From positions 93,321 to 157,320 of the forward strand of contig JAOZHT010000004.1 of assembly GCA_026014735.1 (NCBI GenBank): a DNA stretch of 64,000 nt, written 5' to 3'. The notes beneath the pieces were generated by a model that was given only the letters and a program-made list of their open reading frames with translations, was not told where the DNA came from and searched no databases. Shown in pieces: positions 16,942 to 55,800 of the stretch. Origin of the DNA: Candidatus Bathyarchaeota archaeon. GTDB taxonomy: Archaea; Thermoproteota; Bathyarchaeia; Bathyarchaeales; Bathycorpusculaceae. Every line of letters starts with the position of its first letter. Position 1 is the stretch's first letter. The position numbers and the translations under genes are program-made.

Positions 16942-17018
16942 AGAAGCAATTTCTCTTTCCCTTTTTTGGATAATTTAATTAACGAAACATAAATCAACAC
17001 ATCATATTGTGTCTGCGC

Positions 17019-30110: not shown

Positions 30111-30288
30111 AATCAATTTTTGGGTTGACTCTGGTTAAAAGCATTCTTGTCTACGTTTCTTGACAATGTTTGTCAAGGTTTTTAGACTAAACTGCTTGGA
30201 GTGGATGCAACCGCAACTATCATTGATTAACCAGGCGCTGTCCTTCACATTTTTTAAGCATCCGACCTTTGCTCTAAACAAGCTTTAA

Positions 30289-38826: not shown

Positions 38827-41214
38827 CTAACAGCATAACCTCAGACGAATAAATGACAAAAACAGGAATTTTCTTTGGTTAAACTGGATGAACTGCTCTA
38901 TAGATGACCAGCAGCTCTCTAAATACACCTGAACTCCATCGACTTGAACCTGAAAAATGGCTACCTCTTGATTAGCAAACACCAAGCTAAACATTGGGTC
39001 GCTGATGAAGCGTTCAAGCTCAGAGAAGTCACGTAGGACAATGTAGGAAGCGTTTAGGTTCAATATTGCTTGACGGTAATCAAAGAGGTCAAGCGGAGAA
39101 TCAATTGTTTTTTCAGCGCAGGTTATCGAATTGTTGGCTAACAGCGTTAAGAGACCTGCCTGTGTAGCGGATGCCGAGTCAAGCTGGGGGTACTCGAAAA
39201 CCGCGACGGAAAAACTAACCTCCTGATAGTGACCTGTAAGCGAGAAGAGCATATCAAAAGAACCCTCAGATGCCTGCGCCACAGTGGGGTATAAAACAGC
39301 GAAAATCAGTTGCCCCGCCGCATCCACATACGGATCCTTTAGCCCAATGTATGAGTTGTTTTCAACGATAATTTCACTGTTAGTCTGCACCCCAAAGCTG
39401 ATGCTGATAAAGTCGACAGCGGAGTCACCACTGGATATGGTTTGGGTCATATTGACAAAGCCCATGCCTTGGTTAACTGTGGCTTTTTGAGTCAGATTAA
39501 AAAACGCATTTTCCCATGTAACACAGATAGCTGCCGAGTTAGACGAGTTCTCAAGATGCATTTCCTTAAGCGTAAGCTCTGAAACCTTAACCATGCGTAC
39601 TTCTCCACCGACGCTATAGGTGATGACGGTTTGGCTGTTGTTGAAGTTGAGGAAGGGATAGGGATAATACTGGTTGCTTAATTTGACAAGGAACTGAGGG
39701 TTACAAGCTGCCAGATAGCCTCCGTCCTCTCTAATTTGGAGCAACCCGTTATCAACCAGATAGTCGGTGTCAAGAAGCCGAATCGCCAACTGGGCAGGCA
39801 CAAATTCTCGTGCGTTGGTAAGAAAAATCGGCTCCACGCCACCCACAGTTTTCCGCTGGGCGCCTCCAAGCCACCAGCCATACAAGGCATCAGATACCAA
39901 AACGGAATCCGGCGGCGTGTTGGTTTTGATCCACTGCATCGCCTCGTAGCCCGGCTGAGTCATAACTTGAAGTCCTTTCTGCAAGCGGAAGCCTTCAGGG
40001 GGAGTCATGGAGAAGTGGGGCAGCCAGAAAAAGGCGGCAAGAATCAAGATAGCCGCGAAAAACGCTGTGAGTGCACGGTTGGATGGATGGGAAATGCCGC
40101 GAGTCTGGATACAGGCAAGTCTTGTTTGAAGCAGCCGCATCGGAGCGGATAGCAGTTGCTTGCTGTTTTTCGCTAATAGCTGAGCGCCGAAAAAGATGCC
40201 GGCTCCCACCAGAATGGTCAGTGGCAAGGCAGCGAAGTAGAGGAAGCGTTCGTAGTCCATGTATAAGCCCACGAGGTAGGATTGAGTTAGGACAGTTGGG
40301 ATAATCAGCCATGAGGCAAAGAGAAGGGTGGTGAATCGCATATTTACTTGGGTGTACTTGAGGAGTGCAGGGTACAGTAGGGAAATGGCGAAGAAGGGCA
40401 TAACAAACTGCACAGGGATAAGCCTCATGGGAAGCAGCAGGCTTTGAATATCCGGTGAGCCACCAGTGTACAGGGGCGAGTTCAGGTTCAGATAGAAAGG
40501 AGCGGCCTGAACTAGGAAGGGCAAGACCACCAAGGCGCCGACGAAGGGGGGAATAAGCCATTCCAAAACCTCTTTCCTCCCAACGCCCACCTGATGCGGA
40601 AAACACAGACCCATCAGAACCACAGCAGAAACTATCGCCATAAACAGGACGGCGCTAAGAGAATGCGTAAGAAATATAGTTGCTGAAAGCAGTGAAGCCA
40701 CCGCTAAACGCGGCATCCTTGAAAACCGGTTTTTCTCTAGCAGCAGATAGAATACCAGTGGAATAAGCGTCAGAGTGACAGTGTTTGGGTAGCCTGACCA
40801 CAGCAACATGAAGATGTCATAGTATGAAACCCCCACTAGGAAAGCAACGATTAACGCTGCGGATTCATTGAAGACCCGACGAGTCATCAAGAAGGCAACA
40901 AGCACCAGCAGCGAAGAGAAAAGCACCGCGGCAAGCGCCTGCGCTAAATAATCGGGCAGCGCCGTGAAAAACATGATGCTTGAAACGAATATGTGGAAGC
41001 CGGGAAACGTGTTTGAGGTGCCGCCGCCCATATGGTAGTAGTTCCACATATAGTCTGTGCCGCCGCCCTGCGTTATAGAGTAGATGAGGCTGTTGTGGAG
41101 TCCGATGTCGGCTCCGGGCGGGAATCCTGTGTCCAAAACGAGGACGACGCGGTAGATGGCGGCAAACAAAGCGATGAGGAGGAGTAAAACATAGCTTTTT
41201 TTGGTCCCCAGCAT
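38827..41214 (-). CDS. GT-C-fold membrane glycosyltransferase-like protein (STT3/AglB- or AglS/PMT-like), paralog 1
   Basis: About 13 predicted TM helices, then a ~370-aa extracytoplasmic domain. The junction YEAMQWIKTNTPPDSVLVSDALYGWWLGG resembles the WWDYG region of oligosaccharyltransferases but lacks WWD. It is strongly similar to 45612..47912. Confidence 0.65.
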   Translation of the reverse strand: MLGTKKSYVLLLLIALFAAIYRVVLVLDTGFPPGADIGLHNSLIYSITQGGGTDYMWNYYHMGGGTSNTFPGFHIFVSSIMFFTALPDYLAQALAAVLFSSLLVLVAFLMTRRVFNESAALIVAFLVGVSYYDIFMLLWSGYPNTVTLTLIPLVFYLLLEKNRFSRMPRLAVASLLSATIFLTHSLSAVLFMAIVSAVVLMGLCFPHQVGVGRKEVLEWLIPPFVGALVVLPFLVQAAPFYLNLNSPLYTGGSPDIQSLLLPMRLIPVQFVMPFFAISLLYPALLKYTQVNMRFTTLLFASWLIIPTVLTQSYLVGLYMDYERFLYFAALPLTILVGAGIFFGAQLLAKNSKQLLSAPMRLLQTRLACIQTRGISHPSNRALTAFFAAILILAAFFWLPHFSMTPPEGFRLQKGLQVMTQPGYEAMQWIKTNTPPDSVLVSDALYGWWLGGAQRKTVGGVEPIFLTNAREFVPAQLAIRLLDTDYLVDNGLLQIREDGGYLAACNPQFLVKLSNQYYPYPFLNFNNSQTVITYSVGGEVRMVKVSELTLKEMHLENSSNSAAICVTWENAFFNLTQKATVNQGMGFVNMTQTISSGDSAVDFISISFGVQTNSEIIVENNSYIGLKDPYVDAAGQLIFAVLYPTVAQASEGSFDMLFSLTGHYQEVSFSVAVFEYPQLDSASATQAGLLTLLANNSITCAEKTIDSPLDLFDYRQAILNLNASYIVLRDFSELERFISDPMFSLVFANQEVAIFQVQVDGVQVYLESCWSSIEQFIQFNQRKFLFLSFIRLRLCC

Positions 41215-41319
41215 TCCTGCCTTTTCCCCAGTGCTCAGATAGCAGGTTGCCAGTTAAATGGTTTCCTAACATAGAGGGAATGGAATTAGAGAATTTGTGG
41301 CAGGTGGGTTTTCTAAAAC

Positions 41320-41327
41320 TTTATAAT
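41320..41327 (+). promoter_or_regulatory. TATA-like box (TTTATAAT) upstream of the deacetylase/radical-SAM pair
   Basis: Located about 35 nt upstream of the TTG start at 41360, in the 145-bp divergent spacer between paralog 1 and the CE4 gene. Confidence 0.35.
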
Positions 41328-41359
41328 TCCCCACGGTCAAGTGACATTCGGCGATTTGC

Positions 41360-42106
41360 TTGATTGCTTTGCCTGAGCTGATTTCAAACGTGAACTGGCT
41401 GCTTTCAAACCCCATCGACTTAAAGGGGCTAACAGGGGATATTTGGGCTTGGGCATCGGTTCCCCATGTAAAGGGGGTTTTGAGTGAGCTACTGGCAGTT
41501 CTTAAAAAACACGATGTTTCTGCAACTTTTTTTATTTCAGGGGTCTGCGCCCGGCAGAACAGAGAGGAGGTGCGTGGGATAGCTGAGGCTGGACACGAGA
41601 TAGGGCTCCATGGCTATAGACACGTCCCCTATGATATGCCCAAAGCCGAAATGCTCCGGGACATGGCGGAAGCAGTTTCGGTTTTCCGGGAAATGAGCAT
41701 CGGCGTCACCGGTTTTAGGGCGCCATGGCTAATTTCCAACGAAGACACCTACCGCACAGCTCAACGGTTCGGCTTAACGTATGTGTCTAATTACAGCGCC
41801 AAAAAAGGTCCCCAAAAACTCGAAAAGTACAATCTGGTGGAGCTGCCGATTTACCTTGAAGACCAGTCGCTGCTGAAAAGCAACGCCGTGCAGATTCTGC
41901 TGGACTCGGCCCAAGCAGGAAGAGTGTTCGAGTTTCATCTGCTGTATGTGCGGCGCAGCATGCAGATCCTCGATGAATTTCTAGGCAAACTGGAAATCGA
42001 TGCAACAACCCTCTCTGAAGTTGCCGCTGGACAAGGTGGTGTGGGATTGTCGTTTGATATTGCGTATTTGAATCGGATGGAGTTAATTAAAAAGCTGCTT
42101 TCCTGA
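41360..42106 (+). CDS. Polysaccharide deacetylase (NodB homology / CE4 family)
   Basis: VSATFFISGVCA....EEVR.IAEAGHEIGLHGYRHVPY and FRAPW motifs are typical of NodB-domain deacetylases. TTG start. Confidence 0.8.
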   Translation: MIALPELISNVNWLLSNPIDLKGLTGDIWAWASVPHVKGVLSELLAVLKKHDVSATFFISGVCARQNREEVRGIAEAGHEIGLHGYRHVPYDMPKAEMLRDMAEAVSVFREMSIGVTGFRAPWLISNEDTYRTAQRFGLTYVSNYSAKKGPQKLEKYNLVELPIYLEDQSLLKSNAVQILLDSAQAGRVFEFHLLYVRRSMQILDEFLGKLEIDATTLSEVAAGQGGVGLSFDIAYLNRMELIKKLLS

Positions 42107-42107
42107 A

Positions 42108-43241
42108 GTGAAATGCTTGAGTGAACTCTTCCTGAACCTTAAAGACGTAGATTTCCAGTATAAATCAAAGGTTTTCTTTGGAATACTATCAAAAAGAGCC
42201 ATGGCTGGCCCATACTTAGTTGTGGTGGCAAGCCAGTACCGATGCAACCACCAATGTATATTCTGCAAGTGGTTCTCACCGATGGCAAAAAAGACAAACC
42301 CGGCTAATTCAAGCATAAACATGGACGTTTACAGGCAGCTTATAGATGAGTTAGCCGCGTTAGGCACCAAGGTCATCCTAATCGGCAACAATGAAGAACC
42401 ATTCATGGATAACCAGTTGACCGAGAAGATTCAATACGCCAAGCAACATGGCTTAGGCTGCTTCGTGATAACCAACGGTTCCCTGCTGACCCAAGAGAAA
42501 GCAGAGAAACTCGTGGACTACCGGCTTGATTACCTTAACGTGAGTTTAAACGCGGCGACACCCCAAACTTACCCGCGAATAAACACAACTGCAACCGACA
42601 AAACCTTCAGCCAGATAGTCTCGACGGTTTCTTTTATCGAGAAACTAAAAGAAGAAAAAGAGTCACTATTTCCCCGCATCCGTTTATCGATGGTGGTTTG
42701 CAACCGTAACTATCAGGACATCGGAGAATTCGTTGAGTTATGCAAGCGGGCTGGGGTGAGAAGCGCGCGGATAAAGCGGCTGATTTGCTCCTCAAAAGAA
42801 ATGGAAGATGAGCTTGAGCTTTCCGCTAGGCAGGAGCAGGAAACCAAAGACCAACTGACTTCGGCCCTAAAATCCGCGGAAAAATACGGCGTCAGCATAG
42901 ATATGGAATGGTCAGAATGGGATAACTCACAGGAAACAGAGCTTAAAGAGAGCCTGCCATGCTATTACGGTTGGCTCTTCAGTGTGGTGGATGCAGATGG
43001 CAGCGTGTATCCCTGCTGCTTCCCAGCGAACGGCGCATCATGCGGTTTTGGCAACATCAACCAAACGGGTTTCCGCAACATCTGGTTCTCCGAGAAATAT
43101 CGACAATTCCGAAAGAAAAGCAGTGACATCGAGGGACGAAGACAAATGGGATATCAGTGTAATCAGCCCTCATGCTTCTTTAACAACATGCAGGTTCATG
43201 AAATTCTGCATAAACCCCACCGCTTCCTAACACAGCTATAA
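42108..43241 (+). CDS. Radical SAM enzyme with C-terminal SPASM/twitch-type Cys-rich domain
   Basis: CNHQCIFC = the CxxxCxxC radical-SAM cluster motif. The C-terminal CYYGW...DADGSVYPCCF....CGFGNI......W......F....CNQPSCFFN has SPASM-like cysteine spacing. It starts 1 nt after the CE4 stop. Confidence 0.8.
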   Translation: MKCLSELFLNLKDVDFQYKSKVFFGILSKRAMAGPYLVVVASQYRCNHQCIFCKWFSPMAKKTNPANSSINMDVYRQLIDELAALGTKVILIGNNEEPFMDNQLTEKIQYAKQHGLGCFVITNGSLLTQEKAEKLVDYRLDYLNVSLNAATPQTYPRINTTATDKTFSQIVSTVSFIEKLKEEKESLFPRIRLSMVVCNRNYQDIGEFVELCKRAGVRSARIKRLICSSKEMEDELELSARQEQETKDQLTSALKSAEKYGVSIDMEWSEWDNSQETELKESLPCYYGWLFSVVDADGSVYPCCFPANGASCGFGNINQTGFRNIWFSEKYRQFRKKSSDIEGRRQMGYQCNQPSCFFNNMQVHEILHKPHRFLTQL

Positions 43242-44650
43242 TTTCCCAGATTCAGGGTTTTTCCAAATGTGAGTTGGTTGTAATTTCCCAAGACTTCAAA
43301 GATGTCGTATCGGCTGTTTTGGTAAACTAAGTGCAGAAACGGGCTCTTTGCTAGTTCAGGCAGAAAAGCTGTGCCTAGAGCCGCGTTGGTCTGATAATCA
43401 AATTGGCTTTGGTCATAGACAATGAAGCGGATGTTGTTTTCCGTTAGGTACTCTTTGTAGCTGCGTGACACCATGGGAAAGGGTGATGCTTTAAGGCTAA
43501 AGAGGCCGGGCAAGCCTTCGGGTTGGAGCGAGGGATAGGTGTCTTTTGTGAGCGCTAAAACCTGGTATTGCCGGCTGACGTTTTGGTTGGCACGGATTTG
43601 CTCAAATTGGTATTGGTAGCGGATTGCATCGATTTGGCGCGTAGCTATTGCGCCGATGTTTCCCCAAGTGGGCAAGTCCGTGAAGTTCATGGCGAAGGCG
43701 GTTTGTTTTTCTTGGTCATAAAGGCCAATGTAGTAGTCATGCATATCTGAACTGGAAAAATCAACGCTCACCCAAGATGCGCTGACAATTTTCGATGGCA
43801 TATCCCAGGGGTTAGTCCAATCCATGAATCCGGGTATCTGGGCTTTATCGAAGTGGAATTCGTGATCAAAGGAAGTCACTAAAGACAGGGTTACATTGGA
43901 GATATCAGCGGTTAAGGGAGTAACTGACCAGGAGATGTTGAGGGGGTACTGGTCATTTTGGGCAAGCAAGGTCTGGGTTAGGGCCACTTGATGGTTGAAG
44001 TAGCTGAATTCGATAGTTTTGGAGCCGTTTGCTTTTTCATTTAACAGGACGGTTCGGCTCAGCTCTGAGAGAACAACAGTGTAATCTACACCGTTTTGAG
44101 TAAACGATAGGAAGTCCCCTTCAAGCGACGAGTAGGAAACCCGGCGCCACAGCTGATTCAGCGAGACATAGGTTTCGTCGGTGACATTATCAATGGGCTC
44201 GTAGGCCCTCAGCATAGTTTGGGGCGCCTCGATTTGGTAATCAAAAGTTAAAATTGAATCGGCAACCGAGTTTGCACCTTCCCAATCGTAGGTCTGCGCG
44301 ATTACAGGTTTCTCCGAAAAAACGGCGAACCAAGCACCGGGATTTAAGGTAACCACAACGTTTGCGGCGTCAGGGTAGTTTTTGCTAAGCCACACTCCAG
44401 CCTCATAGGTGGTTATGTCGGCTCGGGAATTGTAAGCAGCATCCATCAGGACTTCCGCTGAGGTGTTGTAAATATGGAAACCGATTAATGGGCAACCCAC
44501 CAGCGCAATTAAGGCGATGGAGACTATCTTTAGTCGCCTTCTATGCAAGAGCTGCCTATTTCTGAAAAGCGCCGAGATTTTTTCAGCGGCAAAGAAAACG
44601 CAGACGCAGCAAAAATGGCAATTGGAGGCGCCAAGTAGTAGATAAACCAT
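43196..44650 (-). CDS. C-terminal (extracytoplasmic) half of a third GT-C-like paralog, split from 44530..45603 by a frameshift
   Basis: After one TM helix (IVSIALIALVGCPLIGF) it carries TTYEAGVWLSKNYPDAANVVVTLNPGAWF and ends ...SPFLHLVYQNSRYDIFEVL. This is colinear with the ectodomains of paralogs 1 and 2. The first 120 nt overlap the upstream ORF in another frame. Confidence 0.55.
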   Translation of the reverse strand: MVYLLLGASNCHFCCVCVFFAAEKISALFRNRQLLHRRRLKIVSIALIALVGCPLIGFHIYNTSAEVLMDAAYNSRADITTYEAGVWLSKNYPDAANVVVTLNPGAWFAVFSEKPVIAQTYDWEGANSVADSILTFDYQIEAPQTMLRAYEPIDNVTDETYVSLNQLWRRVSYSSLEGDFLSFTQNGVDYTVVLSELSRTVLLNEKANGSKTIEFSYFNHQVALTQTLLAQNDQYPLNISWSVTPLTADISNVTLSLVTSFDHEFHFDKAQIPGFMDWTNPWDMPSKIVSASWVSVDFSSSDMHDYYIGLYDQEKQTAFAMNFTDLPTWGNIGAIATRQIDAIRYQYQFEQIRANQNVSRQYQVLALTKDTYPSLQPEGLPGLFSLKASPFPMVSRSYKEYLTENNIRFIVYDQSQFDYQTNAALGTAFLPELAKSPFLHLVYQNSRYDIFEVLGNYNQLTFGKTLNLGNYSCVRKRWGLCRIS

Positions 44651-45603
44651 TCAAAGGGCAAAAATAACCCGACAAGATAAGATTTCGCAAAAAAGAAGGG
44701 CACTAAAAGGCTAAGCAACAGCGTAACAAAAACAAGCTGCCGTTTCTGCCGCTTAAGCAGGTAGTATCCGACACCGATCCCGCCTAATGCGAGGAACTGT
44801 ATGAAGCCAAAGTAGAGCAGAAAAGACTCAAAGCTTGTGTAGGGAATATCGACCGCATAGTTCTTGTTGCCTAGAAACATGTGGTAGATTGCTACGTCTA
44901 GGTAGCTTGAGACTGCGGGAAAGTAGAAGGCAAAAAAAGCTACAGCAGCGCCAGTGGCGGTTGCGAGGAAGGCTTTGAGGTAGGTTCCCCGAAATTTTAT
45001 CACCATCAAAAGCATAACAGGCAACATTATGATAACTGCAATGAAAGTGGTGAGTTGATGCGCGACGGCGATGGCGAAGGCAGCGAAAAAGGTCACCACC
45101 ATGTAGCCGAATTGTTTAGCTGCGAAGTAGGCGGAATACAGCAGCAGAACAAGAAAAGCCATCCCCAACGCGGTGGTGTAGCCGCCCCATGTGTTAAGAA
45201 AATAAATCGGATAACACATCGATAGAAAAACGGCGGCGAGGGCACCTGTTTTTTTGTTAAAGAATTTTCTGCCGACCAAATAAACAGAGAAAAATACAAG
45301 CCAATCCACAGCCACCGCCAACACTTTCTCCAGAAAAATCTTTTGCCCCACATCAACGATGCCGCCAAACGAAAAAGCCATTGCAAGCAAAACCTCAAAA
45401 AGAGGCGGCAGCCAGCCAACGTTGCCGAGGGAAATTTGCCCCGTCTGCAAGAACATCTGGGCTTTTGCCAGGTGAACTGCGGGGTCGTTTCCCAAAATCA
45501 GCCCGTTAGCGGATATAAGTGCATAGAAAAGGGCAGCGATAAGCAGCGAAAAACCGCCTAGAAAGGCGATTTCAAGTTTTTTTTCTCTTGATAGTTTGTC
45601 CAT
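44530..45603 (-). CDS. N-terminal multi-TM half of the third GT-C-like paralog
   Basis: It is colinear with the TM domains of paralogs 1 and 2 (GNDPAVHLA vs PPGADIGLH; TWGGYTTAL vs WSGYPNTV; AKSYLVGLFLPFEWFIYY vs TQSYLVGLYMDYERFLYF). It stops shortly after an A6 run. The ATG is at 45603. Confidence 0.6.
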   Translation of the reverse strand: MDKLSREKKLEIAFLGGFSLLIAALFYALISANGLILGNDPAVHLAKAQMFLQTGQISLGNVGWLPPLFEVLLAMAFSFGGIVDVGQKIFLEKVLAVAVDWLVFFSVYLVGRKFFNKKTGALAAVFLSMCYPIYFLNTWGGYTTALGMAFLVLLLYSAYFAAKQFGYMVVTFFAAFAIAVAHQLTTFIAVIIMLPVMLLMVIKFRGTYLKAFLATATGAAVAFFAFYFPAVSSYLDVAIYHMFLGNKNYAVDIPYTSFESFLLYFGFIQFLALGGIGVGYYLLKRQKRQLVFVTLLLSLLVPFFFAKSYLVGLFLPFEWFIYYLAPPIAIFAASAFSLPLKKSRRFSEIGSSCIEGD

Positions 45604-45611
45604 CAAAGTGC

Positions 45612-47912
45612 TCAGCTATCCTTTGGTTGCGGGGGGTTTGATTGCACTTGGAAGATGGCGACTTCTTTGTTGATAAAGGCAAGACTGAAATGGGGGTCAT
45701 CTTTGTATTTGGGGTTTAAATCGAAGTCGCGGTTCACAACATATGAGACGTTGTATTGTTGCAGGGCAGCTTTGTAGTCAAAGACGACGAGGGGCAAATC
45801 GGGAGCTGACAGGGGGTCTTCCAGGTTGCCGCTTACTGCCTCTTTGAGGGCAGCGGGGTTTTGGGTTGCCTCTTCGGTTAACGGGTATATACCCACTAAG
45901 ATTTGGATCTCCACCATGGATTTACCCTGCAGGTTATAGGAGAGTTGAGTGACACAGGGGCCCTGTGCATAAATGATGCTTACTGAGGGCTGGTTCCCCG
46001 CGAAAATAAGTTGCCCGCATAGCTGCACCTCCGAGTCAACGATGGCTAGGGTGTTGCTGAATTGCTGCTCCAGTTTACCCGGCGACGTAACAGTGAGGTT
46101 TAGCCAATCAAGAGACAGGGCAGGATTGCTGCTTTGAACATTTATGGTTAGGTTTGCAAACAAGGTGCCCTTTGTCAGGGTGGTTGCTTCGGAGAAGCTA
46201 AGGTCATCGTTCGCTTTGTTGACCACTACCGATGGGCAGTCGCTTTTTTCTCCCACCAACCGCATGTCAGTAGCCGCCAAATCAGCGATGGTGATGGAAT
46301 GCTGCGTGCCGTAGGCATCATGGGACACCAAGGTGATGGCGCTGCTGTTGAACCCGAAAAAGGGGTATGGGATGTTGGTCGTGTTTAGGTTTGCCAGAAA
46401 TTGGGGGTTGTGTCTGGCGAGGTATCCGCCGTCTTCGCGGACTTGGATGTAGCCGTTGTCCAGCAGGTAGTCGGTGTCAAGCAGATATGAGACGTTGCGG
46501 GATATGGCTACTTCGCGGCTAAGCGAAATCGCCTGAAAATCAACATCAGTTATTGTTGGCCGCTGTCCAACCCCTGCCAGCCACCACCCATACCCCATCT
46601 CCGAAGCAAACACGGAAGCCGCAGGCGTGTTCTGTTTAGCCCACTCAATCGCATGGTAGCCTTCATCGTCCATAACTTGATAAAAGCCCTGAAGCCCAAC
46701 GCCGCCACTCCAGGGATAGCTGAAGATAGGAAGACTCAAAGTTACCAGAAGCATCAAGGCTAAAAGAAAGCCGCCGTAAACTGCGCGAACGGAGGTTTTA
46801 GGCATGATTTTCACGAGTTTGCCAATGACCCCTTTTTTCCGCGCAACCCCGTGGATGACACTTAGCAGCATAGCCAGACGATTTGAGGCATAATCAAACG
46901 TTAAGGCAAACAGCATTAATATTGGATAAATCAAAAAGTAGATGAACCGAATAGAGTCCAGATACACCCCAAACAGGAAACCTAAAGTCAGCAGCAGCGG
47001 AACAAAAAGCCACATAACCACCAGAAAAGTCGGCCACAAAATAAGCTGCTTCTTATACTCCCTGGAATACAGGAAAAGCAAAGCTATGCCTGCGAAAAAC
47101 GCCAATGTCACAACAAGAGGAATCGAGCGGTACTCAAGCAGAGCCTGAGCTACTACGGGAGCGCCCAGTAGCGTCGCGCTTTCACCCATATAAATCGGCG
47201 CCGCTGAAGCCAAAAAGGGCAAGACAAGGACCGCTCCGATAACTAACGGCAATGCACAGTAGAACACGTTTTTTCGGGAGGTGCTTAAGGCTTTGGGGAA
47301 AACCAGCGCGGCGAGCAATGCGGCTGCGGTTATGCCTATGAAGACGGCGGCGCTCAAGGAATGGCTAAGCAGTATGGCTGCAGCTAAAAGGGAAGCTGCA
47401 ATTAGAAAAGCAGCATTTGTGAATTTTTCTCTTTTCAGAAACAAGTAGAAGACGGTCGGCATCAGAAAAAGCACAGTTATGTTTGGGTAACCGCCCCAGC
47501 AGAGAATCTCGATGTCCCAGCGCGAAACCGCAACCAAAAACGCCGTGACCAACGCAATAGAGTCATTCCACACCAACCGTGTAACCAAAAAAACCGAGAG
47601 CACCACAAGTGAAGAAAACAGTGCGGCAACAAGAGCCTGCGCTAAATAAACGGGCAAAGCGGTCAAAAGCATGATCTGTGAAGCTACAATGTGGAAGCCT
47701 GGGAATTCAAGCTCGACTCCTCCGCCCATCTGGTAGTAGTTGTAGAGGAAGTTGGTGTTGCCTGACTGCGTGATGGAGTTTACAACGCCGGAGTGGAAGC
47801 CTATGTCGGCTCCGGGGGGATAGGCCTGCCAAGTCACTAAGAAAACACGGTAGATAAAGGCGAAAACAAAGATTCCGAGCAACAGCGCAATCTTCCTATC
47901 CATCCTAAGCAT
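45612..47912 (-). CDS. GT-C-fold membrane glycosyltransferase-like protein, paralog 2
   Basis: It shares long identical blocks with 38827..41214 (PPGADIG, NYY.MGGG, FPGFHI, TALP.YLAQAL, GYPN, YGWWL, REDGGYLA..NPQFL, EVAIFQVQ). The junction is YHAIEWAKQNTPAASVFASEMGYGWWLAG. Confidence 0.65.
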   Translation of the reverse strand: MLRMDRKIALLLGIFVFAFIYRVFLVTWQAYPPGADIGFHSGVVNSITQSGNTNFLYNYYQMGGGVELEFPGFHIVASQIMLLTALPVYLAQALVAALFSSLVVLSVFLVTRLVWNDSIALVTAFLVAVSRWDIEILCWGGYPNITVLFLMPTVFYLFLKREKFTNAAFLIAASLLAAAILLSHSLSAAVFIGITAAALLAALVFPKALSTSRKNVFYCALPLVIGAVLVLPFLASAAPIYMGESATLLGAPVVAQALLEYRSIPLVVTLAFFAGIALLFLYSREYKKQLILWPTFLVVMWLFVPLLLTLGFLFGVYLDSIRFIYFLIYPILMLFALTFDYASNRLAMLLSVIHGVARKKGVIGKLVKIMPKTSVRAVYGGFLLALMLLVTLSLPIFSYPWSGGVGLQGFYQVMDDEGYHAIEWAKQNTPAASVFASEMGYGWWLAGVGQRPTITDVDFQAISLSREVAISRNVSYLLDTDYLLDNGYIQVREDGGYLARHNPQFLANLNTTNIPYPFFGFNSSAITLVSHDAYGTQHSITIADLAATDMRLVGEKSDCPSVVVNKANDDLSFSEATTLTKGTLFANLTINVQSSNPALSLDWLNLTVTSPGKLEQQFSNTLAIVDSEVQLCGQLIFAGNQPSVSIIYAQGPCVTQLSYNLQGKSMVEIQILVGIYPLTEEATQNPAALKEAVSGNLEDPLSAPDLPLVVFDYKAALQQYNVSYVVNRDFDLNPKYKDDPHFSLAFINKEVAIFQVQSNPPQPKDS

Positions 47913-48001
47913 GGTTTTCCCCCATAGGTTTCTGCGCTTTCACGTTTGAGGCTATCTCAACTTCTAACTTAAAGCTTGACATGGAAAGCAAGATCAGTGC
48001 C

Positions 48002-49090
48002 TCATTTTCGTCCTGCTTCCAAGGCAAATTTAAGCAACTCCTCAGCTGTACGGTCCCATGAAAACCCACGTGAGTACTTTAACGCGTTTCGGGATAGTTC
48101 TGCCCTTAAATCGCCATCCGAAAGTAAAGCGGTAAGTGCATCCGCTAAGGCCGCCACGTTTCCGCTATCCACCAGCAGCCCTGTTCGGTTATGCTGCACG
48201 GAATCCTTCAGCCCCGGCACATCATAAGCCACAGCGGGCACCCCCAGAGCATTAGCTTCAATAACGTTTAAGCCCCAGCCCTCGCGGATTCCCGGATGAA
48301 CCAGCACCCAACCCTGCGCTATCAACCTGCGGCGTTCATCGTCAGCTATTCGCCCAAGAAACCTCACGCCTTCACCCGCCAGCCTCTCTAGCTCACACCT
48401 GATGGGTCCATCGCCGATGATCCAGAGTTCTGCCTCGGGAACCTTCTGTTTTACTTTTTCGAAGGCAGCTATGGCGTGGCTTGGCCGTTTGGCTTTCTTT
48501 AGTCGCCCGGAATAAACGATTACGGGATGACTGCTTTTTTGGGGCAGCGTAGGTAGGGGCTTAAAGTTTAAGCCTTCAGGTACAACGGAAACGTGCTTGA
48601 AACCCAGAGTTGCCAGATCCATGCGGGTGCTCTCTGACACCGTGACCGTCGGCACATCGACGTATCTGCGCAGCCACCTGTCCTCGAGGCGGTAGCCCAC
48701 GGCGTTCATGGGAAAGCCTGTTTCGAGGTACCAGTACTCGCGGGCCAGCTGATGAATCAAAGCCACCACATGCTCACCGTTTTCAAGGAATTTTGGAGCA
48801 AAAAAGGGGCGCGTGTTGATTTCGTCAACTACCAAGTCAAAGTGTTCGTTCTTTAAGCTTTTTTTGAAGAACCTTTTGGCTTCATTGTAAACTGAGAAGC
48901 GACCGCCTGACCTAACAACCCTCACCCCATCGAGGGTTTCCTCGCCTTTGCAGCCGGCGAAGGCAGCGGTAAACAGGGTCACTTCGTGTCCAGCCTTAAC
49001 CCAGCGCTTGGCAACCTCACATGTGAAGACCTCAGCGCCGCCCATCTCGGGGTTTAGCCAGCAGCGCCAATTAAAAATCAGAATCCGCAT
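48002..49090 (-). CDS. Glycosyltransferase family 4 (GT-B fold, Glycos_transf_1 type)
   Basis: MRILIFNW..........GGAEV N-terminus and C-terminal EGWGLNVIEANALGVPAVAYDVPGL.DSV (E-x7-E region). The ATG at 49090 overlaps the GT2 stop (TGATG). Confidence 0.85.
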   Translation of the reverse strand: MRILIFNWRCWLNPEMGGAEVFTCEVAKRWVKAGHEVTLFTAAFAGCKGEETLDGVRVVRSGGRFSVYNEAKRFFKKSLKNEHFDLVVDEINTRPFFAPKFLENGEHVVALIHQLAREYWYLETGFPMNAVGYRLEDRWLRRYVDVPTVTVSESTRMDLATLGFKHVSVVPEGLNFKPLPTLPQKSSHPVIVYSGRLKKAKRPSHAIAAFEKVKQKVPEAELWIIGDGPIRCELERLAGEGVRFLGRIADDERRRLIAQGWVLVHPGIREGWGLNVIEANALGVPAVAYDVPGLKDSVQHNRTGLLVDSGNVAALADALTALLSDGDLRAELSRNALKYSRGFSWDRTAEELLKFALEAGRK

Positions 49091-49911
49091 CAAGCCGCCT
49101 CTGCAGGCCCTCTTTTTTTGGTATCTATTTTTCCATATATCCTAAGCACCCGTATTCGCCAGGTCATTCTAAGCAAATCAGTGAACATCTCGAAGATTTC
49201 TCTGAATTTTGGACAGGCGTTTAGCTTAAGCTGAACGGGCATCTCAACTATTTTTAACCCGTGCAGGTTAGCGGCGGCAAGCAATTCAACATCAAAAGCA
49301 AACCGCTTAACCGTTAACCATGGAATAATCCGCTCAAAAGAACTCTTCTTCATGGCTTTAAGCCCCACTTGGGTATCTCTGATGTTCACGCCAATCATTA
49401 TCTTAACCAAGACGTTGAAGGAATGGCTAAGGATTCTTCGCAGGGCCGATATCTCTACGCGGGACTGCGGATGCCACTTAGAAGCAATAACTATGTCGCT
49501 TTGGCTGAGCGCCTCGATGTAGCGTGAAATCATGCCTAAACCTATCTCTAAGTCGCTGTCAGCGAAAACCACCACGTCCCCGCTGCTTCTCATAAAACCC
49601 GCCTTAACTGCGTAGCCTTTGCCGTTGTTGGTGCTGTAACTGTGGATTTTCACGTGACCGTTCTTTTGGGCATACATAAGTGTCTTAGGCAGGGTGTTGT
49701 CTTTGCTGCCGTCGTTAACCACAACGATTTCGTAGGTTTTGTGTTCCTGACTGAAAAGCGCCTCTATGTTGATTAGGGCAGATTCGATGGAGTTTTCCTC
49801 GTTAAACGCAGGGACCACGATTGAGAGTTCAATTTGCTCCATGTCAACCGCCATCGGTTTGTTTCTTGGATACGCTGATAGCCGAGCTACCCAGTGGGAT
49901 ACAGGCATCAA
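49090..49911 (-). CDS. Glycosyltransferase family 2 (dolichyl/polyprenyl-phosphate sugar synthase-like)
   Basis: LSIVVPAFNEENSIE, VVNDGSKDNT, DSDLE (DxD-type) and FAFDVELL motifs. The real start is probably the ATG at 49854 or 49842. Confidence 0.8.
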   Translation of the reverse strand: MMPVSHWVARLSAYPRNKPMAVDMEQIELSIVVPAFNEENSIESALINIEALFSQEHKTYEIVVVNDGSKDNTLPKTLMYAQKNGHVKIHSYSTNNGKGYAVKAGFMRSSGDVVVFADSDLEIGLGMISRYIEALSQSDIVIASKWHPQSRVEISALRRILSHSFNVLVKIMIGVNIRDTQVGLKAMKKSSFERIIPWLTVKRFAFDVELLAAANLHGLKIVEMPVQLKLNACPKFREIFEMFTDLLRMTWRIRVLRIYGKIDTKKRGPAEAA

Positions 49912-50056: not shown

Positions 50057-51859
50057 ATGGCAGCTACATTAACCTTCTATGGTGCAGTTGACGAAATCGG
50101 CGGAAACAAAATCCTCCTGAAAACAAGCGATGGAGCCCTCCTGCTGGATTTTGGGCGCCGCATGAACGAGTACGGAAGATTCTTCTCGGATTACATTCAG
50201 GCACGCTCCAAAAATGCCCTTCGTGACATGCTGAGGTTGGGGATTCTTCCAAAAATCGATGGAGTCTACACGCGTTACTTGGTGGATATGACCTCTTTAT
50301 TTGAAAACCCTGAGGTAAGCAAAAAAGTTCCCTTTGAAGAGGCCCGGGATTACTGGAAAACCACCGATGTCTCCCCCTGCGACCCCGCAAAGCCAGCGGT
50401 TGATGCCGTCTTTGTAACGCATGCCCATTTTGATCACATCCAAGATGTTAGTTTTCTTGACCCATGCATCCCAGTTTACTGCACAGAAAAAACCAAAGTG
50501 CTAGCAAAAGCCATGACGGATGTTTCTGTTTCAGGGGTTGATGACCAATATTACAAGCTCGCCAAGGAGTCAACCATTAAGCAGAAGCCAGCGGGGTACA
50601 AGACGCTCTGTCCAGAGGAATGCGCGTTCTGCGAGGAAAAAGAGGAGGAGCACCCAATCATTGTTGACGCAAAAACAAAATTCGCATTCACTTATGACAT
50701 AGCTCCACGATATCGAACTTTTAATACAGATATGCAGGGCCACGTGAAAGGCATAGAGTACAAGCTTATCCCCGTGGGGCACTCGGTACCTGGCGCATGC
50801 TCAATCCTGTTGACGCTGCCAGGTGGCAAACGGGTTCTCTATACAGGCGACATACGGTTCCACGGTGCAGATGAAGTTTCAATAGATGATTATGTCAAAG
50901 CCGTCGGTGGCTCAGTGGATATTATGATCACGGAGGGCACAAGGGTAGATTCGGAGAATGTCTTAACGGAGGAACAGGTCGGCAGAGACATAACCGAGGA
51001 TATCAGATGCTGTGAGGGGCTTGTGCTGATTAACTTTGGCTGGAAGGACCTAACACGCTTTAACACCGTATATGAAGCCGCCAAAAGCAACGGTCGCGTC
51101 CTTGTGGTTACGCCTAAACTTGCATATTTGCTCTATGAGATGCACTGCAACTTCCCAACCAAACATCAAGACCCAAGAACGATGGATAACCTGAAAGTTT
51201 ACCTCAAACGCGAAGGCGACCTGCTCTACTCCAAAGCAGACTATGACAAATACAAAATGGGGTACCTGCATTATCACGGCAGAAACGTAGCTAAAGACGA
51301 CCGCAACCTTGTCCGCATAGCAGAACGACTCGACGTCGGCGGCGAAGCGGGGAACCCAAAAAATCCCCTGGGGGCAACATGCGCGGGGTTACCTTATGAT
51401 TACAAAGATATCTACTCGCTGGCAACGCACCATTTAGACAACGGCGTTAGAGCCTACCAAATACGCAGAACCCCAAGGCAGTACGTCTTGATGTTCTCGT
51501 TCTGGGATGCAAATGAACTCTTCGACTTGATACCCCTTGACGGCAAACATCAAACCCGCTACATCTCGGCATCCACGGAGCCGTTTAGTGAAGAGATGGA
51601 AATTGACGAACGCAAAATGGTGCATTGGATGGACTTCTTTAGCATCGCCTGCGACTATGACGTTGACGAAAAGGGCGATAAATCGTTTAAGCGCAGGCAT
51701 GTTTCGGGGCACGCATCAAAAATGGAACTTAAAGAAGTAATAGATAGAATAAACCCAGCCAGGATTATACCCATCCACACGGAGAATTGCGGAGTATTCG
51801 AAAGCTTGTTTGCATCAAAAGTTATTTTGCCGAAATATGCTCAGCCCATAGAGATTTGA
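50057..51859 (+). CDS. Metallo-beta-lactamase fold beta-CASP nuclease (RNase J / CPSF-like) with long insertions
   Basis: Motifs in order: LLLDFG (motif 1 Asp), VTHAHFDH (HxHxDH), VGHSVPGA, YTGDIRF, ITEGT (motif A), HVSGHAS (motif B), IPIHTE (motif C). At 600 aa it has no KH domains. It carries a Cys-rich insert, CPEECAFCEE. Confidence 0.75.
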   Translation: MAATLTFYGAVDEIGGNKILLKTSDGALLLDFGRRMNEYGRFFSDYIQARSKNALRDMLRLGILPKIDGVYTRYLVDMTSLFENPEVSKKVPFEEARDYWKTTDVSPCDPAKPAVDAVFVTHAHFDHIQDVSFLDPCIPVYCTEKTKVLAKAMTDVSVSGVDDQYYKLAKESTIKQKPAGYKTLCPEECAFCEEKEEEHPIIVDAKTKFAFTYDIAPRYRTFNTDMQGHVKGIEYKLIPVGHSVPGACSILLTLPGGKRVLYTGDIRFHGADEVSIDDYVKAVGGSVDIMITEGTRVDSENVLTEEQVGRDITEDIRCCEGLVLINFGWKDLTRFNTVYEAAKSNGRVLVVTPKLAYLLYEMHCNFPTKHQDPRTMDNLKVYLKREGDLLYSKADYDKYKMGYLHYHGRNVAKDDRNLVRIAERLDVGGEAGNPKNPLGATCAGLPYDYKDIYSLATHHLDNGVRAYQIRRTPRQYVLMFSFWDANELFDLIPLDGKHQTRYISASTEPFSEEMEIDERKMVHWMDFFSIACDYDVDEKGDKSFKRRHVSGHASKMELKEVIDRINPARIIPIHTENCGVFESLFASKVILPKYAQPIEI

Positions 51860-51972: not shown

Positions 51973-52440
51973 ATGGCAGAGCCAAAAGATGGCAGACCAA
52001 TCTTCTTCCCCGAAAACCTGGTTCTCTTAGGCAACCTCGCCCTTTTTGTATGGATTGTCCTTGACACCGTTGCTTTTTTACTATATGATCTTACGGCTGG
52101 TATTGTGTTCTTTATCCTGACGCTTATCTTGATCTATGGGGTGCTGCATCTGCTGGGCTGCCTAAGACCATGCCATAAATGCATCAAATGCACCCACGGC
52201 ATGGGGCGATTGGCCGCGCTGTACTTTGGCAGACGCATCTTCAAAGACTACAAGTACAACTACAAACTGCCCACCGCAGTATTCTTCAGCCTATACATCG
52301 GGGCTTTTCCAGCGGCATTCGCCCTCTACTCCGCAGCCACAGGTTTCACAGTCGTTAAAGCAGCGGTTTCTGCGGTGCTTTTGGTTTTCACGATCTATAG
52401 CGCCACTACGTGGAGGATAGAGAAACCGAAGAAAACCTGA
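51973..52440 (+). CDS. Integral membrane protein with a Cys/His-rich loop
   Basis: Four predicted TM helices. The loop is CLRPCHKCIKCTHG between TM2 and TM3. No family recognised. Confidence 0.5.
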   Translation: MAEPKDGRPIFFPENLVLLGNLALFVWIVLDTVAFLLYDLTAGIVFFILTLILIYGVLHLLGCLRPCHKCIKCTHGMGRLAALYFGRRIFKDYKYNYKLPTAVFFSLYIGAFPAAFALYSAATGFTVVKAAVSAVLLVFTIYSATTWRIEKPKKT

Positions 52441-52894: not shown

Positions 52895-55800
52895 TTATCG
52901 GCGGGTTTGGGCCAGCGTTTTTTGGGATTTAACGTAGACTTCCACCTTAACGTCTGGGTTTGCTTGCCCAAGGAACTTTGACAAGTCACCCTCCCACTGA
53001 GGCTTAGAGTCTGCAGTGAAGCCCACCGTGTCGGAGATGCCCCGCCAGAGCAACGCGCGGTCGTAGTCGCGGGCGTCTTGGGGCATGAACTCGAATATGC
53101 TGCGGCTTGCCACGATGACGAGTTTCTTTTTCATCCGCGAGATGGCGACGTTGATGCGGTTGAGGTTAAGCAGGAACTCGCTTTCGGTGCGGACATAGTC
53201 GGGGTCGCTGACGCAGCTGCTGATGATGACGAAGTCTGCTTCGCCGCCCTGATATCGCTCCACCGTATCGACGCGGGCGCCCAGGTTGGCGTCTTGGAGG
53301 CGGTTTTTAAGCAGCCCCTTCTGGGCATTGTGGGGAGTGATGACGCCTATATTTGCGGAGGACGCATTCTTAGCCAGCGCCGCCACGATGGATGCCTCCA
53401 CCAAGTTAGACTGGAAACTCTCTGCCTCATCATGCACGATGAGGACAAACACGTTCTGAGGCGCCAAAGCCACAGCTAACCCCTCCGTCTGGGCCTCAAC
53501 AGGCGCTAAAGTCTGCGTCTGCTCAGAACGGAAATCAATGTTATCCTTCTCATAGACCCATTCACGCAGAAATTCCGCGACCACCGAGTGGCAACGGTGG
53601 CTCTCGCAGAGCCGCTCCGCAGGGATGTCTGCTGGGTTTCTGCATTTTATCCGCTCCAAGCCAAGGTCTTCGTTGCGTAGCAACCGCAGAAAATCCATAG
53701 CGGAAAGAAAAGACGCCATTTCCTCAAGGGTGCGGCGGTCCTCTTTTTCCCAGTTATGCGCCACAATCGGCGGCAGCTGGCGGTGGTCGCCTGCGACGAG
53801 GATTTGGCTGTTTTTGGATAGGAAGCTTCCTGAGAGGATGAGTTCGGGGAGCCGCATCATGCTGGCTTCGTCGACGACGAGGAGGTCAAAGAAGCCTTCG
53901 CCCCAGGGCGGCTCGGATTCGCCGATTTTTTTCATCAAGCCATATAGCCCAGGCGGCGTCAGACATATCACTAACGGGGAGGAAGCCGATGTGGAGGGCG
54001 TAAGCGTGGATTGATTCATCAGGCAGCCCGTGAGTTCAGCGACGGTTTCTTGGTCCTGGTTATAGTTGACGTATTTGACTCCGTCGATGGGCGGCACAAG
54101 CGAAACCTCGCTGCTTAAGACACGGTAAAGCTGCAGATCTTTGAGGTCGCGTCCGCCGGCGGCGATGTATTCTTTCCAGCAACGGCCGAGTTTCTCGACG
54201 AATTCCTGGATGGCTTTATGGGTCGGCGCCACCATCAAAACTCGGCACCGAGACTTTGCCCTATGCGCGGCGATGTGAGCAAGCACTGCAAGCTGCAGCG
54301 TTTCGGTCTTGCCCGTGCCAGGCGGACCCTGAAGCATCACAATCGGTTCAGCTCCAAACACGCGTTCCACAAAACGTTTCTGTTCTGCTTTGGGCGGAAA
54401 CCGCCGTGCCTCCATCCAATTTAGGAAAGGCATCGCTGCAGCCCTGTCTAGTGCAGTGTGGTTGTTGCCGCCTGTCTTGCCCGCCAAGTAGTCTGCTAAG
54501 AGGCAGTAGAGGACGTTGTTGGCTGCGTAGTCGAGGCTTTTTGCGGCGCGGTCCGAGATGATGTCGTCGGCTAACTCGTCAAGGATGTAGTAGCGTCCAG
54601 CCTCGAAGAGCTGCATGTACTTGCCCTGTGCCTTCTCGGGGTCAGTGGTGGGCAGATTATGCCATGCACTGTACTTGCTGCCCCTGCCCCGCGGCCAACT
54701 CACGATTTTAACGACAACTTCCAGCTTGGGCACGTCCACGCGGTCCACGATGGCTCGGGCGGACTTCTCCACCTCCCCCGGCGAGCGCTTCTCGGTTTCC
54801 TCAAACTGCCCCGAGGCGTTGCGCCGCAGCTCAGTCACCACCATCCAGTCGCCTGAACTTGAGCCCTCCGAGCCCTTTACGCGGCAGGCGTTGGCGACGC
54901 AGTCAGCTCTGGGCAGCCCCAGATCCTCGTAGACCAGCTTGCCCCGCACCACGAATTCCCGTTCAAACTCGTCGACGCGTGTGCACTGGAAAATCACTGA
55001 TCGCCCGGAAGCCACCCGCTGATAGGGCAGCATCGCATAGTGCTGATACATCTCCTGGCGCTTCGAGAAGTACTCTAAATCCAAGAATTCTCGGCAGCTC
55101 CGCTCCAGCGTGGCGGTGCCCAGCGTGAACTCGGAGATTTTGGGGACAGCAATCGGCTTTTTGCCCAGTCGCCTGTTACGGATAGAGAGGGACCGCTCGA
55201 CCTGCTCGAGTGCCATACAGATTTTGGTGCCCATCAGGTTAAGTTCTTCGTCGGTTATGCGGCGGGTTTTAGAGGTGTAGTCGCACCATTTGCGTTTATC
55301 GAGCAGAACCTTGGAGGGGCCTTTAACTTGGCTGAAATTGTCGAGTCGACCCTTGGCGCCCCAGATGTACTCGATGGGCAATTGGTCGCCGAAGCGGGCG
55401 CGAGCGGGGTAGTAACCGTCGTTTTTGCCCTCTTTGAGGAAGGCGATGGTGCCGTCGGGGTTTCTGCGGTAGGGCAAGCTGTAGTTGAATAAGCCGTCGC
55501 GGAACACCAGCGCCAAATCCACTATGGTGCCGTCTTTGCGTTTGACGCGCCATTGGTTGCGGTCAAAGAAGCATGCCTGCTCCAGAATTGGCAGCAACCC
55601 CGAGCTGTGATAACGCAGGGCTTTGCGGTGGACCACTTCGTCTTGGAGAATGGAGAACATGGGTTGGTCGATGGCTTGCCGCAGCCCCAGCAGGTCACGC
55701 ACGGCCTGTGCACTAATCATTGAGGGCTGCCGACAGACCGCTTTCATGAGGACATCGCGTTCTTGGCGGCTGAAGAAGTACAGGTGAATCGGCGCCTCAT

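Follow-up and report, generated by a model that had tools for sequence, protein, structure and literature searches.

The DNA considered here, which we refer to as the window, is a stretch of 64,000 nucleotides from a Candidatus Bathyarchaeota archaeon (contig JAOZHT010000004.1, positions 93,321 to 157,320), and its minus strand carries three genes for STT3-like membrane proteins of the glycosyltransferase C (GT-C) class. P1 (38827..41214, 795 aa) and P2 (45612..47912, 766 aa), the latter an intact open reading frame (ORF) for a predicted glycosyltransferase, belong to a family that we call A-type throughout; P3 (43196..45606), the representative of a B-type family, is split by a frameshift into two ORFs (44530-45606 and 43196-44650). 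An earlier note, made from this sequence without database searches, had the three genes at these positions, and only the extent of P3 has been refined. It described a locus built around a triplicated GT-C enzyme; the unit that is conserved is instead a tandem A/B pair in housekeeping synteny, and not a glycan island.

The tandem A/B pair is near-universal in Bathyarchaeia and lies outside glycan islands, and this is the main new result of the analysis. Eighty-one related Bathyarchaeia loci (labels L001-L083) were compared, 76 of them informative in having enough downstream sequence; in 74 of the 76, the A-type gene is followed on the same strand by the B-type gene, with a median gap of 9 nt. 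An exhaustive profile search, with a cut-off of E up to 1e-3, returned relatives that form 721 clusters at 50% identity. Of the 214 stretches with relatives in GTDB species genomes, the best 80 have titles of Bathyarchaeia (or Nitrososphaerota), save for three bacterial bin labels that we take to be mis-assigned. Homologs with a named organism, including those of P2 at 46-61% identity, come from Bathyarchaeia and are annotated as "hypothetical protein"; some B-type proteins are entered in IMG as "asparagine N-glycosylation enzyme membrane subunit Stt3." The A/B family falls outside every Pfam and NCBIfam model, and in the literature we found neither a description of it nor any AglB survey text for Bathyarchaeia.

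The core pair is embedded in a conserved housekeeping block, with CbiZ, AsnS, PurL/PurM, and a ribosomal protein nearby. In 65-74 of the 81 loci, genes for a corrinoid-binding protein, an MtrH-like methyltransferase subunit, and a small DUF1616 membrane protein divergently flank the pair upstream of its A-type gene, often joined by a gene for a B12-binding radical S-adenosylmethionine (radical-SAM) protein; this flank is absent from the window. A functional link of the MtrH, corrinoid, and DUF1616 genes to the pair was considered and rejected, as their proximity is class-level synteny with housekeeping genes. We also discarded a conserved trio of A, B, and a radical-SAM/SPASM gene. Such a gene is convergent to the B gene in 51 of the 81 loci, but it moves with an RnfD-Fer4/HemN block in L047, L056, and L063. 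The radical-SAM protein of the window, moreover, belongs to a different family, earlier merged with the other by single-linkage clustering; it shares only about 25% identity, over about 106 aa, with the radical-SAM/SPASM protein downstream of the core pair elsewhere. Given this mobility and the different families, a functional link to the A/B pair is not supported.

Within the window, only P1 and P2 are close paralogs. They align end to end (39% identity, E of 6e-152), and all eight of the long motif blocks that the earlier note had ascribed to the three copies are found in both at matching positions; P3 has 0/8. P3 is about 18% identical to the P1/P2 family. By BLASTP, its C-terminal half matches that of P2 marginally (E of 0.004), and the match of the transmembrane (TM) half is not significant (E of 0.26). 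A profile comparison of P3 alone with the P1/P2 family gives a probability of 97.8%, and that of the A-type with the B-type family alignment gives 100%, with an E value of 3.9e-43 over 705 columns. A-type and B-type are two ancient, distinct sub-families that are homologous at the profile level. Since P3 is a frameshifted member of a separate, anciently diverged family, the locus is not a simple triplication.

A-type proteins consist of about 12-13 TM helices followed by a beta-rich C-terminal domain of roughly 365 aa, close to the 13 or so helices and extracytoplasmic domain of about 350 aa proposed earlier. The loop after TM1, which bears Asp36 of P2, is free of Lys and Arg, and the loop ahead of the last TM helix has seven such residues; this charge pattern is in keeping with an N-in, C-out orientation in which the first loop and the C-terminal domain face outward. 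An AlphaFold2 (AF2) model of P2 built on 148 aligned sequences (predicted local distance difference test [pLDDT] of 88.9; predicted template modeling score of 0.86) has a helical membrane domain to about residue 395, a strand-helix-strand junction, and a beta-rich domain. When this model was matched to the Protein Data Bank (PDB) with Foldseek, ranks 1-19 were all catalytic subunits of oligosaccharyltransferases (OSTs; CAZy family GT66), namely, AglB of A. fulgidus (AfAglB), yeast Stt3, human STT3A/B, and PglB, at E values of 3.4e-10 to 8.5e-7. AftA and EmbB came after them at 2e-5 to 8e-5, and then DPY19 and ALG12/9; ArnT was not among the top 50 structural matches. A first AF2 model, from an 18-sequence alignment, was set aside as poor (pLDDT of 61), and the Foldseek ranking obtained from it was the same. 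Taken alone, the C-terminal domain of P2 matches beta-sandwich domains of GH38, GH65, and GH94 enzymes and of polysaccharide lyases.

OST catalytic subunits are also the source of the only significant PDB sequence matches, and residue alignments with STT3/AglB were made with HMMER. P2 matches human STT3B at an E value of 0.0017; here, the P2 segments FLVTRLVWNDSIALVTAF..VSRWDIEILCWGGYPN stand ungapped opposite FLLTRELWNQGAGLLAAC..VPGYISRSVAGSFDNE of STT3B, and ASEMGYGWWLAGVGQRPTITD of P2 stands ungapped opposite a 21-residue STT3B stretch. A profile of the superfamily alignment (A2, 59 diverse members) matches fungal STT3 at 4.3e-8 and reproduces both STT3B matches, with the family's YGwWisGfaqRPTL aligned ungapped with an 18-residue fungal STT3 stretch; the B-type profile matches AfAglB at 2.2e-4. 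From TM3 into external loop 2 (EL2), FLLTRELWNQG..A..IA of STT3B is nearly collinear with the stretch FLVTRLVWNDS..A..VA. The W..NTP....YG..G...RPT pattern of the STT3 junction between membrane domain and ectodomain is kept in the family as well, the junction peptides lying at nt 39862-39948 in P1 and 46572-46658 in P2. The resemblance of this junction to the SWWDYGY segment of STT3 had been pointed out from the letters of the sequence, and HMMER reproduces that alignment ungapped, with WWD replaced.

The WWD triad of OSTs reads the Ser/Thr at position +2 of the N-x-S/T sequon, and the D-x-D/E motif of EL2 ligates a divalent cation; a DK or MI motif in the C-terminal domain of OSTs completes the pocket for Ser/Thr. 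In the profile alignment, SWWDYGY of STT3 falls on the variable x-x-x-YGWW of the family, so that WWD is absent. Its columns read EMG in P2, where residues 438-444 (E-M-G-Y-G-W-W, 46581..46601, minus strand) align with W-W-D-Y-G-Y-Q of STT3; by the family alignment, they read DAL in P1 (residues 442-448, D-A-L-Y-G-W-W, 39871..39891, minus strand) and LNP in P3, whose equivalent segment includes N-P-G-A-W-F (44327..44344, minus strand). The lack of WWD, first remarked in the three window proteins, extends to all 41 full-length family representatives inspected. No WW[DE]xG turned up in any of the six reading frames when the window and 1.63 Mb of related loci, a few percent of the genomes concerned, were scanned. 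The metal-binding D-x-D/E of EL2 is lost too, a point that the earlier note had not seen: AGSFDNEG of STT3B lies ungapped on WGGYPNIT of P2, so that SFDNE corresponds to GYPNI, and GSYDNE of fungal STT3 aligns with GGYpN- of the family, D-N-E thus becoming P-N-x. By these alignments, the family keeps YG, G...RPT, and, in A-type, an Arg, and it is without WWD and D-N-E.

That Arg is R322 of P2, in the A-type sequence DYxRFLYF. Through the A/B alignment, it maps to a B-type column that HMMER sets on the Arg in QNRFAYYF of AfAglB, which is the lipid-phosphate-binding Arg of OSTs (PglB R375 / AfAglB R426). B-type proteins have Trp in this column (117 of the 118 members over which B-type residues were counted). 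Asp36 of P2 (codon at 47805..47807, minus strand), in the PPGADIGxH motif of the first external loop, is the candidate catalytic Asp of the GT-C fold; it is invariant in the A-type alignment A1 and at least 90% conserved in A2. From their position, we infer that D36 of A-type and D41 of B-type are equivalent to the first-loop Asp of OSTs (PglB D56 / Stt3 D47). H184 and W444 (P2 numbering) are invariant across the 59 superfamily members, and W139, Y142, and R322, like D36, are at least 90% conserved. Within the B-type family, D41 is present in 118 of 118 members; H45, E71, H183, and W426 are nearly invariant, and G424 and W426 are conserved in 117-118 of 118. The A-type ectodomain carries a strongly conserved acidic motif, DTDYxxDNGxxQVREDGG. 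Eight to ten residues upstream of the missing metal site of P2 is an acidic pair, D133/E135, of which E135 is at least 90% conserved; P1 has Phe at residue 135, where the conserved Glu stands in the family, and this residue is Phe or Tyr across the P1 subfamily.

Curated family models score these proteins below their thresholds. The Pfam STT3 model (PF02516) gives P2 16.2 bits against a cut-off of 24.5 and has no hit to P1 or P3, and the NCBIfam archaeo_STT3 model (TIGR04154) gives about 20 bits against a cut-off of 450. In Pfam generally, P1 and P2 have sub-cut-off hits only and the two P3 ORFs have none; PMT_2 (PF13231) matches none of the three proteins. Weak hits in the N-terminal TM domain to PTPS_related (PF10131), PMT_2, DUF6541, and DUF6798 occur in 2-12 of the 59 superfamily members; none of these GT-C clan families is consistent, and the STT3-type junction is missing there. 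The best-supported placement of P1, P2, and P3 is as GT-C proteins of the STT3/AglB/PglB structural lineage, descended from or sister to STT3/AglB, which agrees with the fold and lineage first proposed. Like OSTs, they have about 13 TM helices and an extracytoplasmic C-terminal domain, and their conserved first-loop Asp may correspond to that of OSTs. They differ from OSTs in the WWD and EL2 motifs, in their C-terminal domain resembling glycoside hydrolase (GH) beta-sandwiches, in their sub-cut-off Pfam and NCBIfam scores, and in their obligate tandem pairing.

The B-type gene of the window is broken at an A6 homopolymer (44578..44583, minus strand) that is one base short of the intact P3 frame. 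With one A added at this run, the gene encodes 803 aa, and 97% of the length of that product matches intact homologs of 760-790 aa. P3 orthologs have no A-run at the site, and their reading frame is continuous through this cytoplasmic loop. Programmed frameshifting was rejected, given that no zero-frame X-XXY-YYZ heptamer is present here and that orthologs lack the run. Of the 171 positions at which the B-type family is at least 95% conserved, window P3 retains 156, and the break is therefore either a homopolymer error or very recent. The B-type gene is lost altogether in L005 and L006, the closest related loci, and so P3 may truly have become a pseudogene, rather than being split by a homopolymer sequencing error. 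Residue 136 of P3 (about nt 45199-45201) is Phe in the window and in its seven nearest relatives and Glu in 111 of 118 B-type members, and the change coincides with the lineage bearing three paralogs. N-x-S/T sites kept in at least 80% of members were counted as conserved sequons, with control patterns run alongside. There are two in A-type (N522 and N587, P2 numbering) and three in B-type (N551, N571, and N674), against 0-1 for the controls; all are confined to the predicted extracytoplasmic domains, a hint that A-type and B-type proteins may themselves be N-glycosylated. Window P3 has lost two of its family's three. In this accessory locus, the B-type copy seems to be undergoing decay.

The neighbors of the three genes are as first described. 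On the same strand and upstream of P2 are a GT2 glycosyltransferase gene (49090..49911, minus strand, 273 aa; Pfam Glycos_transf_2 at 1.7e-25), similar to polyprenyl-phosphate sugar synthases, and a GT4 glycosyltransferase gene (48002..49093, minus strand, 363 aa; Pfam Glycos_transf_1 at 1e-35, and Glyco_transf_4). In the order GT2, GT4, P2, P3, the genes successively overlap by 4 nt and are spaced by 89 nt and 5 nt; GT2 and GT4 are co-operonic with P2 and P3. In NCBIfam, the GT2 protein matches PgfS (1e-23), ArnC (3e-17), AglJ and Dol-P-hexose transferase (2e-13 each), and PpgS, all far below cut-offs. Divergent from P1 is a gene for a CE4 polysaccharide-deacetylase-family protein (41360..42106, plus strand, 248 aa; Pfam Polysacc_deac_1 at 6.5e-18) with a weak match (1.6e-4) to the ArnD deformylase. 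The radical-SAM/SPASM gene (42108..43241, plus strand, 377 aa; Pfam Radical_SAM and SPASM) begins 1 nt beyond the stop of CE4 and shares 46 nt at its 3′ end with the 3′ end of P3; its product reaches no NCBIfam cut-off, the best score being to a tungsten-cofactor maturase model (111 bits versus a cut-off of 380).

These accessory genes are rare among the related loci. GT2 is near the A-type gene in 2 of 81 loci (L005 and L022), with a 27% match about 8 kb beyond the pair in L048; GT4 adjoins the A-type gene in L005, L006, L008, L023, and L026 and, in L022, is three genes off on the opposite strand. CE4 and radical-SAM adjoin each other only in L005, L006, L022, L023, and L026, and it is in these same five that the layout GT4, P2, P3, radical-SAM, CE4, P1 (partly with GT2) recurs. 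Orthologs of P1, 55-60% identical to it, are known from L005, L022, L023, and L026 only, plus P0244 (60%). The metagenome-assembled genome of L006, which holds the closest relative of P2, has in addition a core pair at another place, L038, with the usual MtrH context. With GT2, GT4, CE4, radical-SAM, and the extra paralog found only in this lineage, the window looks like a lineage-specific accessory copy of the class-wide core pair, in which the A gene has been duplicated and the B gene is being lost. As a separate observation, the C terminus of P1 (38827-38930) runs about 33 residues past all aligned homologs, is rich in Cys and Leu, and ends in ...RLRLCC; the extended tail may reflect a lost stop codon.

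Further genes of the window can be described briefly. Divergent from GT2 is a plus-strand gene (50057-51859) for a 600-aa metallo-beta-lactamase protein of the beta-CASP/RNase J-like type, followed by one (51973-52440, plus strand) for a 155-aa four-helix membrane protein with CxxCxxC and no family match, which is not recognisable as a flippase. A 1,454-aa protein (52895-57259, minus strand) combines an N-terminal PD-(D/E)XK/Cas4-like nuclease with a C-terminal SF1 helicase (AAA_11/AAA_12) and is Dna2- or defence-like; its gene adjoins the glycan locus. Predicted surface proteins are encoded at 14545-18191 and 28860-30116: two are NosD/right-handed beta-helix proteins, and another, of 798 aa, has a PQQ-like beta-propeller and Ig/filamin repeats. 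They might be parts of the envelope and are candidate glycosylation targets.

We think it probable that the A/B family is a Bathyarchaeia family of STT3-derived GT-C enzymes that transfers dolichol-linked sugar to a non-sequon acceptor at the cell surface. In this scheme, A-type and B-type proteins would act at the outer membrane face, with a dolichyl-phosphate-linked donor from which they take a sugar or a glycan. Transfer would not be to the Asn of a sequon; as acceptor, a glycan at the cell surface, a polymer associated with the S-layer or sheath, or a protein-borne glycan seems most plausible, and the GH-like beta-sandwich ectodomain makes a glycan or glycoconjugate the more likely kind. 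We imagine that A and B act together, as the near-universal abutting, co-directional pair suggests either a heteromeric enzyme or two consecutive steps. The envelope of B. tardum, a cultivated Bathyarchaeon, includes an S-layer plus an outer sheath whose chemistry is unknown (PMC10477458), and an S-layer or sheath glycan is a plausible product of the pair.

In the accessory copy, the GT2 would make the Dol-P-sugar donor, the GT4 would be a cytoplasmic glycosyltransferase, and the CE4 deacetylase would modify the sugar, either by itself or on its lipid carrier, following the ArnC/ArnD/ArnT scheme; we assign no role to the radical-SAM/SPASM enzyme. Haloferax AglD/AglS is an example of glycan modification by a GT2 together with a GT-C protein. 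Comparable three-component systems of a polyprenyl-phosphate GT2, a flippase, and a GT-C enzyme are ArnC/ArnD/ArnEF/ArnT and GtrA/GtrB/GtrV (PMC11127046). The window is like them in that an ArnC/PgfS/AglJ-like GT2 is co-operonic with GT-C genes, with the CE4 gene and its weak ArnD match alongside; it is unlike them in that the GT2 and CE4 genes are present in few related genomes, that a flippase was not recognised, and that the GT-C partner is STT3-like and not ArnT- or GtrV-like. The dedicated extracytoplasmic glycosylation system that the earlier note envisaged stays plausible as a function; its accessory genes are confined to five loci of one sub-lineage.

Several observations weigh against our preferred interpretation. 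Loss of both the metal site and WWD would also fit loss of catalysis. The Foldseek TM-scores of P2 against OST subunits are only 0.38-0.49, and the assignment of Asp36 and Arg322 as the OST catalytic residues depends on sequence alignment and position. Pfam hits at E<0.01 are spread over the GT-C clan (PTPS_related in 12, PMT_2 in 9, and STT3 in 7 of the 59 superfamily members), which makes "STT3-derived" the best-supported placement and not an exclusive one. None of the ten ORFs between 38827 and 52440 has a Pfam or NCBIfam hit to a flippase (GtrA, ArnE/F, or Wzx-like). Finally, the GT2, GT4, and CE4 genes are absent from the great majority of loci and so say little about the function of the core pair.

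A stronger form of the proposal is that, across Bathyarchaeia, A and B form a heterodimeric STT3-derived transferase with a non-sequon acceptor, for example to attach or lengthen a glycan of the S-layer or sheath or to O-glycosylate proteins, and, at its extreme, that this is the only OST-type enzyme of the class, one that recognises its targets without WWD. We regard this as unlikely.

Less likely again is that one or both proteins are non-catalytic GT-C pseudoenzymes that serve as a scaffold, a receptor, or a carrier-lipid-binding subunit, with a dying gene in the window. The canonical metal site is missing in both types. B-type is the stronger candidate for such a role, as it has Trp in the column where A-type and AglB have the putative phosphate-binding Arg, and the window P3 is frameshifted, carries the E136F change, and has lost two conserved sequons, while the two closest related loci have no B gene at all. 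However, B-type keeps its Asp in every member along with His45, Glu71, His183, and Trp426, the pattern expected of an active site, and A-type retains Asp, His, Arg, and its acidic ectodomain motif. With 156 of 171 conserved positions intact, moreover, the decay of P3 would have to be very recent, or the frameshift a sequencing error.

One can also envision that the three GT-C proteins are Emb/Aft-like polymerases that build a wall or sheath polysaccharide from Dol-P-monosaccharides and do not decorate a glycoconjugate. We rate this as improbable, and below the pseudoenzyme explanation. In mycobacteria, the arabinosyltransferases EmbC/EmbA/EmbB and AftA (GT53/GT85) likewise include GT-C paralogs encoded side by side with a large C-terminal domain of carbohydrate-binding type, and EmbA and EmbB form a heterodimer that uses a polyprenyl-monophosphate sugar. 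The several paralogous GT-C proteins of the window, each with a carbohydrate-binding-like beta-sandwich, the polyprenyl-phosphate-sugar-synthase-like GT2 in the operon, and the outer sheath of unknown composition in B. tardum would all fit, and AftA and EmbB are the best non-OST structural matches. Nevertheless, these matches are 4-5 orders of magnitude weaker than those to OSTs and come with no sequence-level match, the TM count and junction motif are different, and the host is an archaeon whose wall polymer is unknown. The conserved neighborhood encodes no polysaccharide export or chain-length control. To a large extent, this explanation overlaps the one that we favor, the acceptor being the only difference.

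Least probable, to our minds, is that the pair is itself the N-oligosaccharyltransferase of Bathyarchaeia, a strongly diverged AglB, possibly an A/B heterodimer, that recognises its acceptor without WWD: OST catalytic subunits are its nearest relatives by structure and sequence, it is found class-wide in a core syntenic block as expected of a housekeeping enzyme, IMG calls some B-type members Stt3, and no WW[DE]xG occurs in the 1.63 Mb of Bathyarchaeia DNA, but it lacks both WWD and the EL2 D-x-D/E, which in all characterised OSTs are the best-conserved functional motifs, its C-terminal domain resembles GH-type beta-sandwiches and not the C-terminal units of AglB, and the DNA scanned is a few percent of the genomes concerned. 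The conserved ectodomain sequons imply a sequon-reading OST, for which the pair looks unequipped. According to the literature, every archaeon sequenced except two species has AglB (PMC8993221), so that a separate canonical gene is likely; this argument and that from the sequons are both indirect.

Bathyarchaeia are among the most abundant archaea of anoxic sediments and soils, and the chemistry of their envelope is essentially unknown. What is newly defined here is an unannotated group of two sub-families, near-always paired and comprising about 720 clusters at 50% identity, that is an offshoot of the N-glycosylation enzyme without the residues that read the sequon and bind the metal. If active, it would be a case of the OST scaffold re-used for another acceptor and a concrete candidate for S-layer or sheath glycan synthesis; if it should prove to be a heterodimer with a non-sequon acceptor, it would be the first enzyme of the STT3 lineage with a different acceptor chemistry. 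COG-based "Stt3" labels in Bathyarchaeia genomes should not be counted as capacity for N-glycosylation. For now, the practical value of these findings is that they give a defined target, both for predicting the structure of the A/B complex and for studies of B. tardum enrichments.

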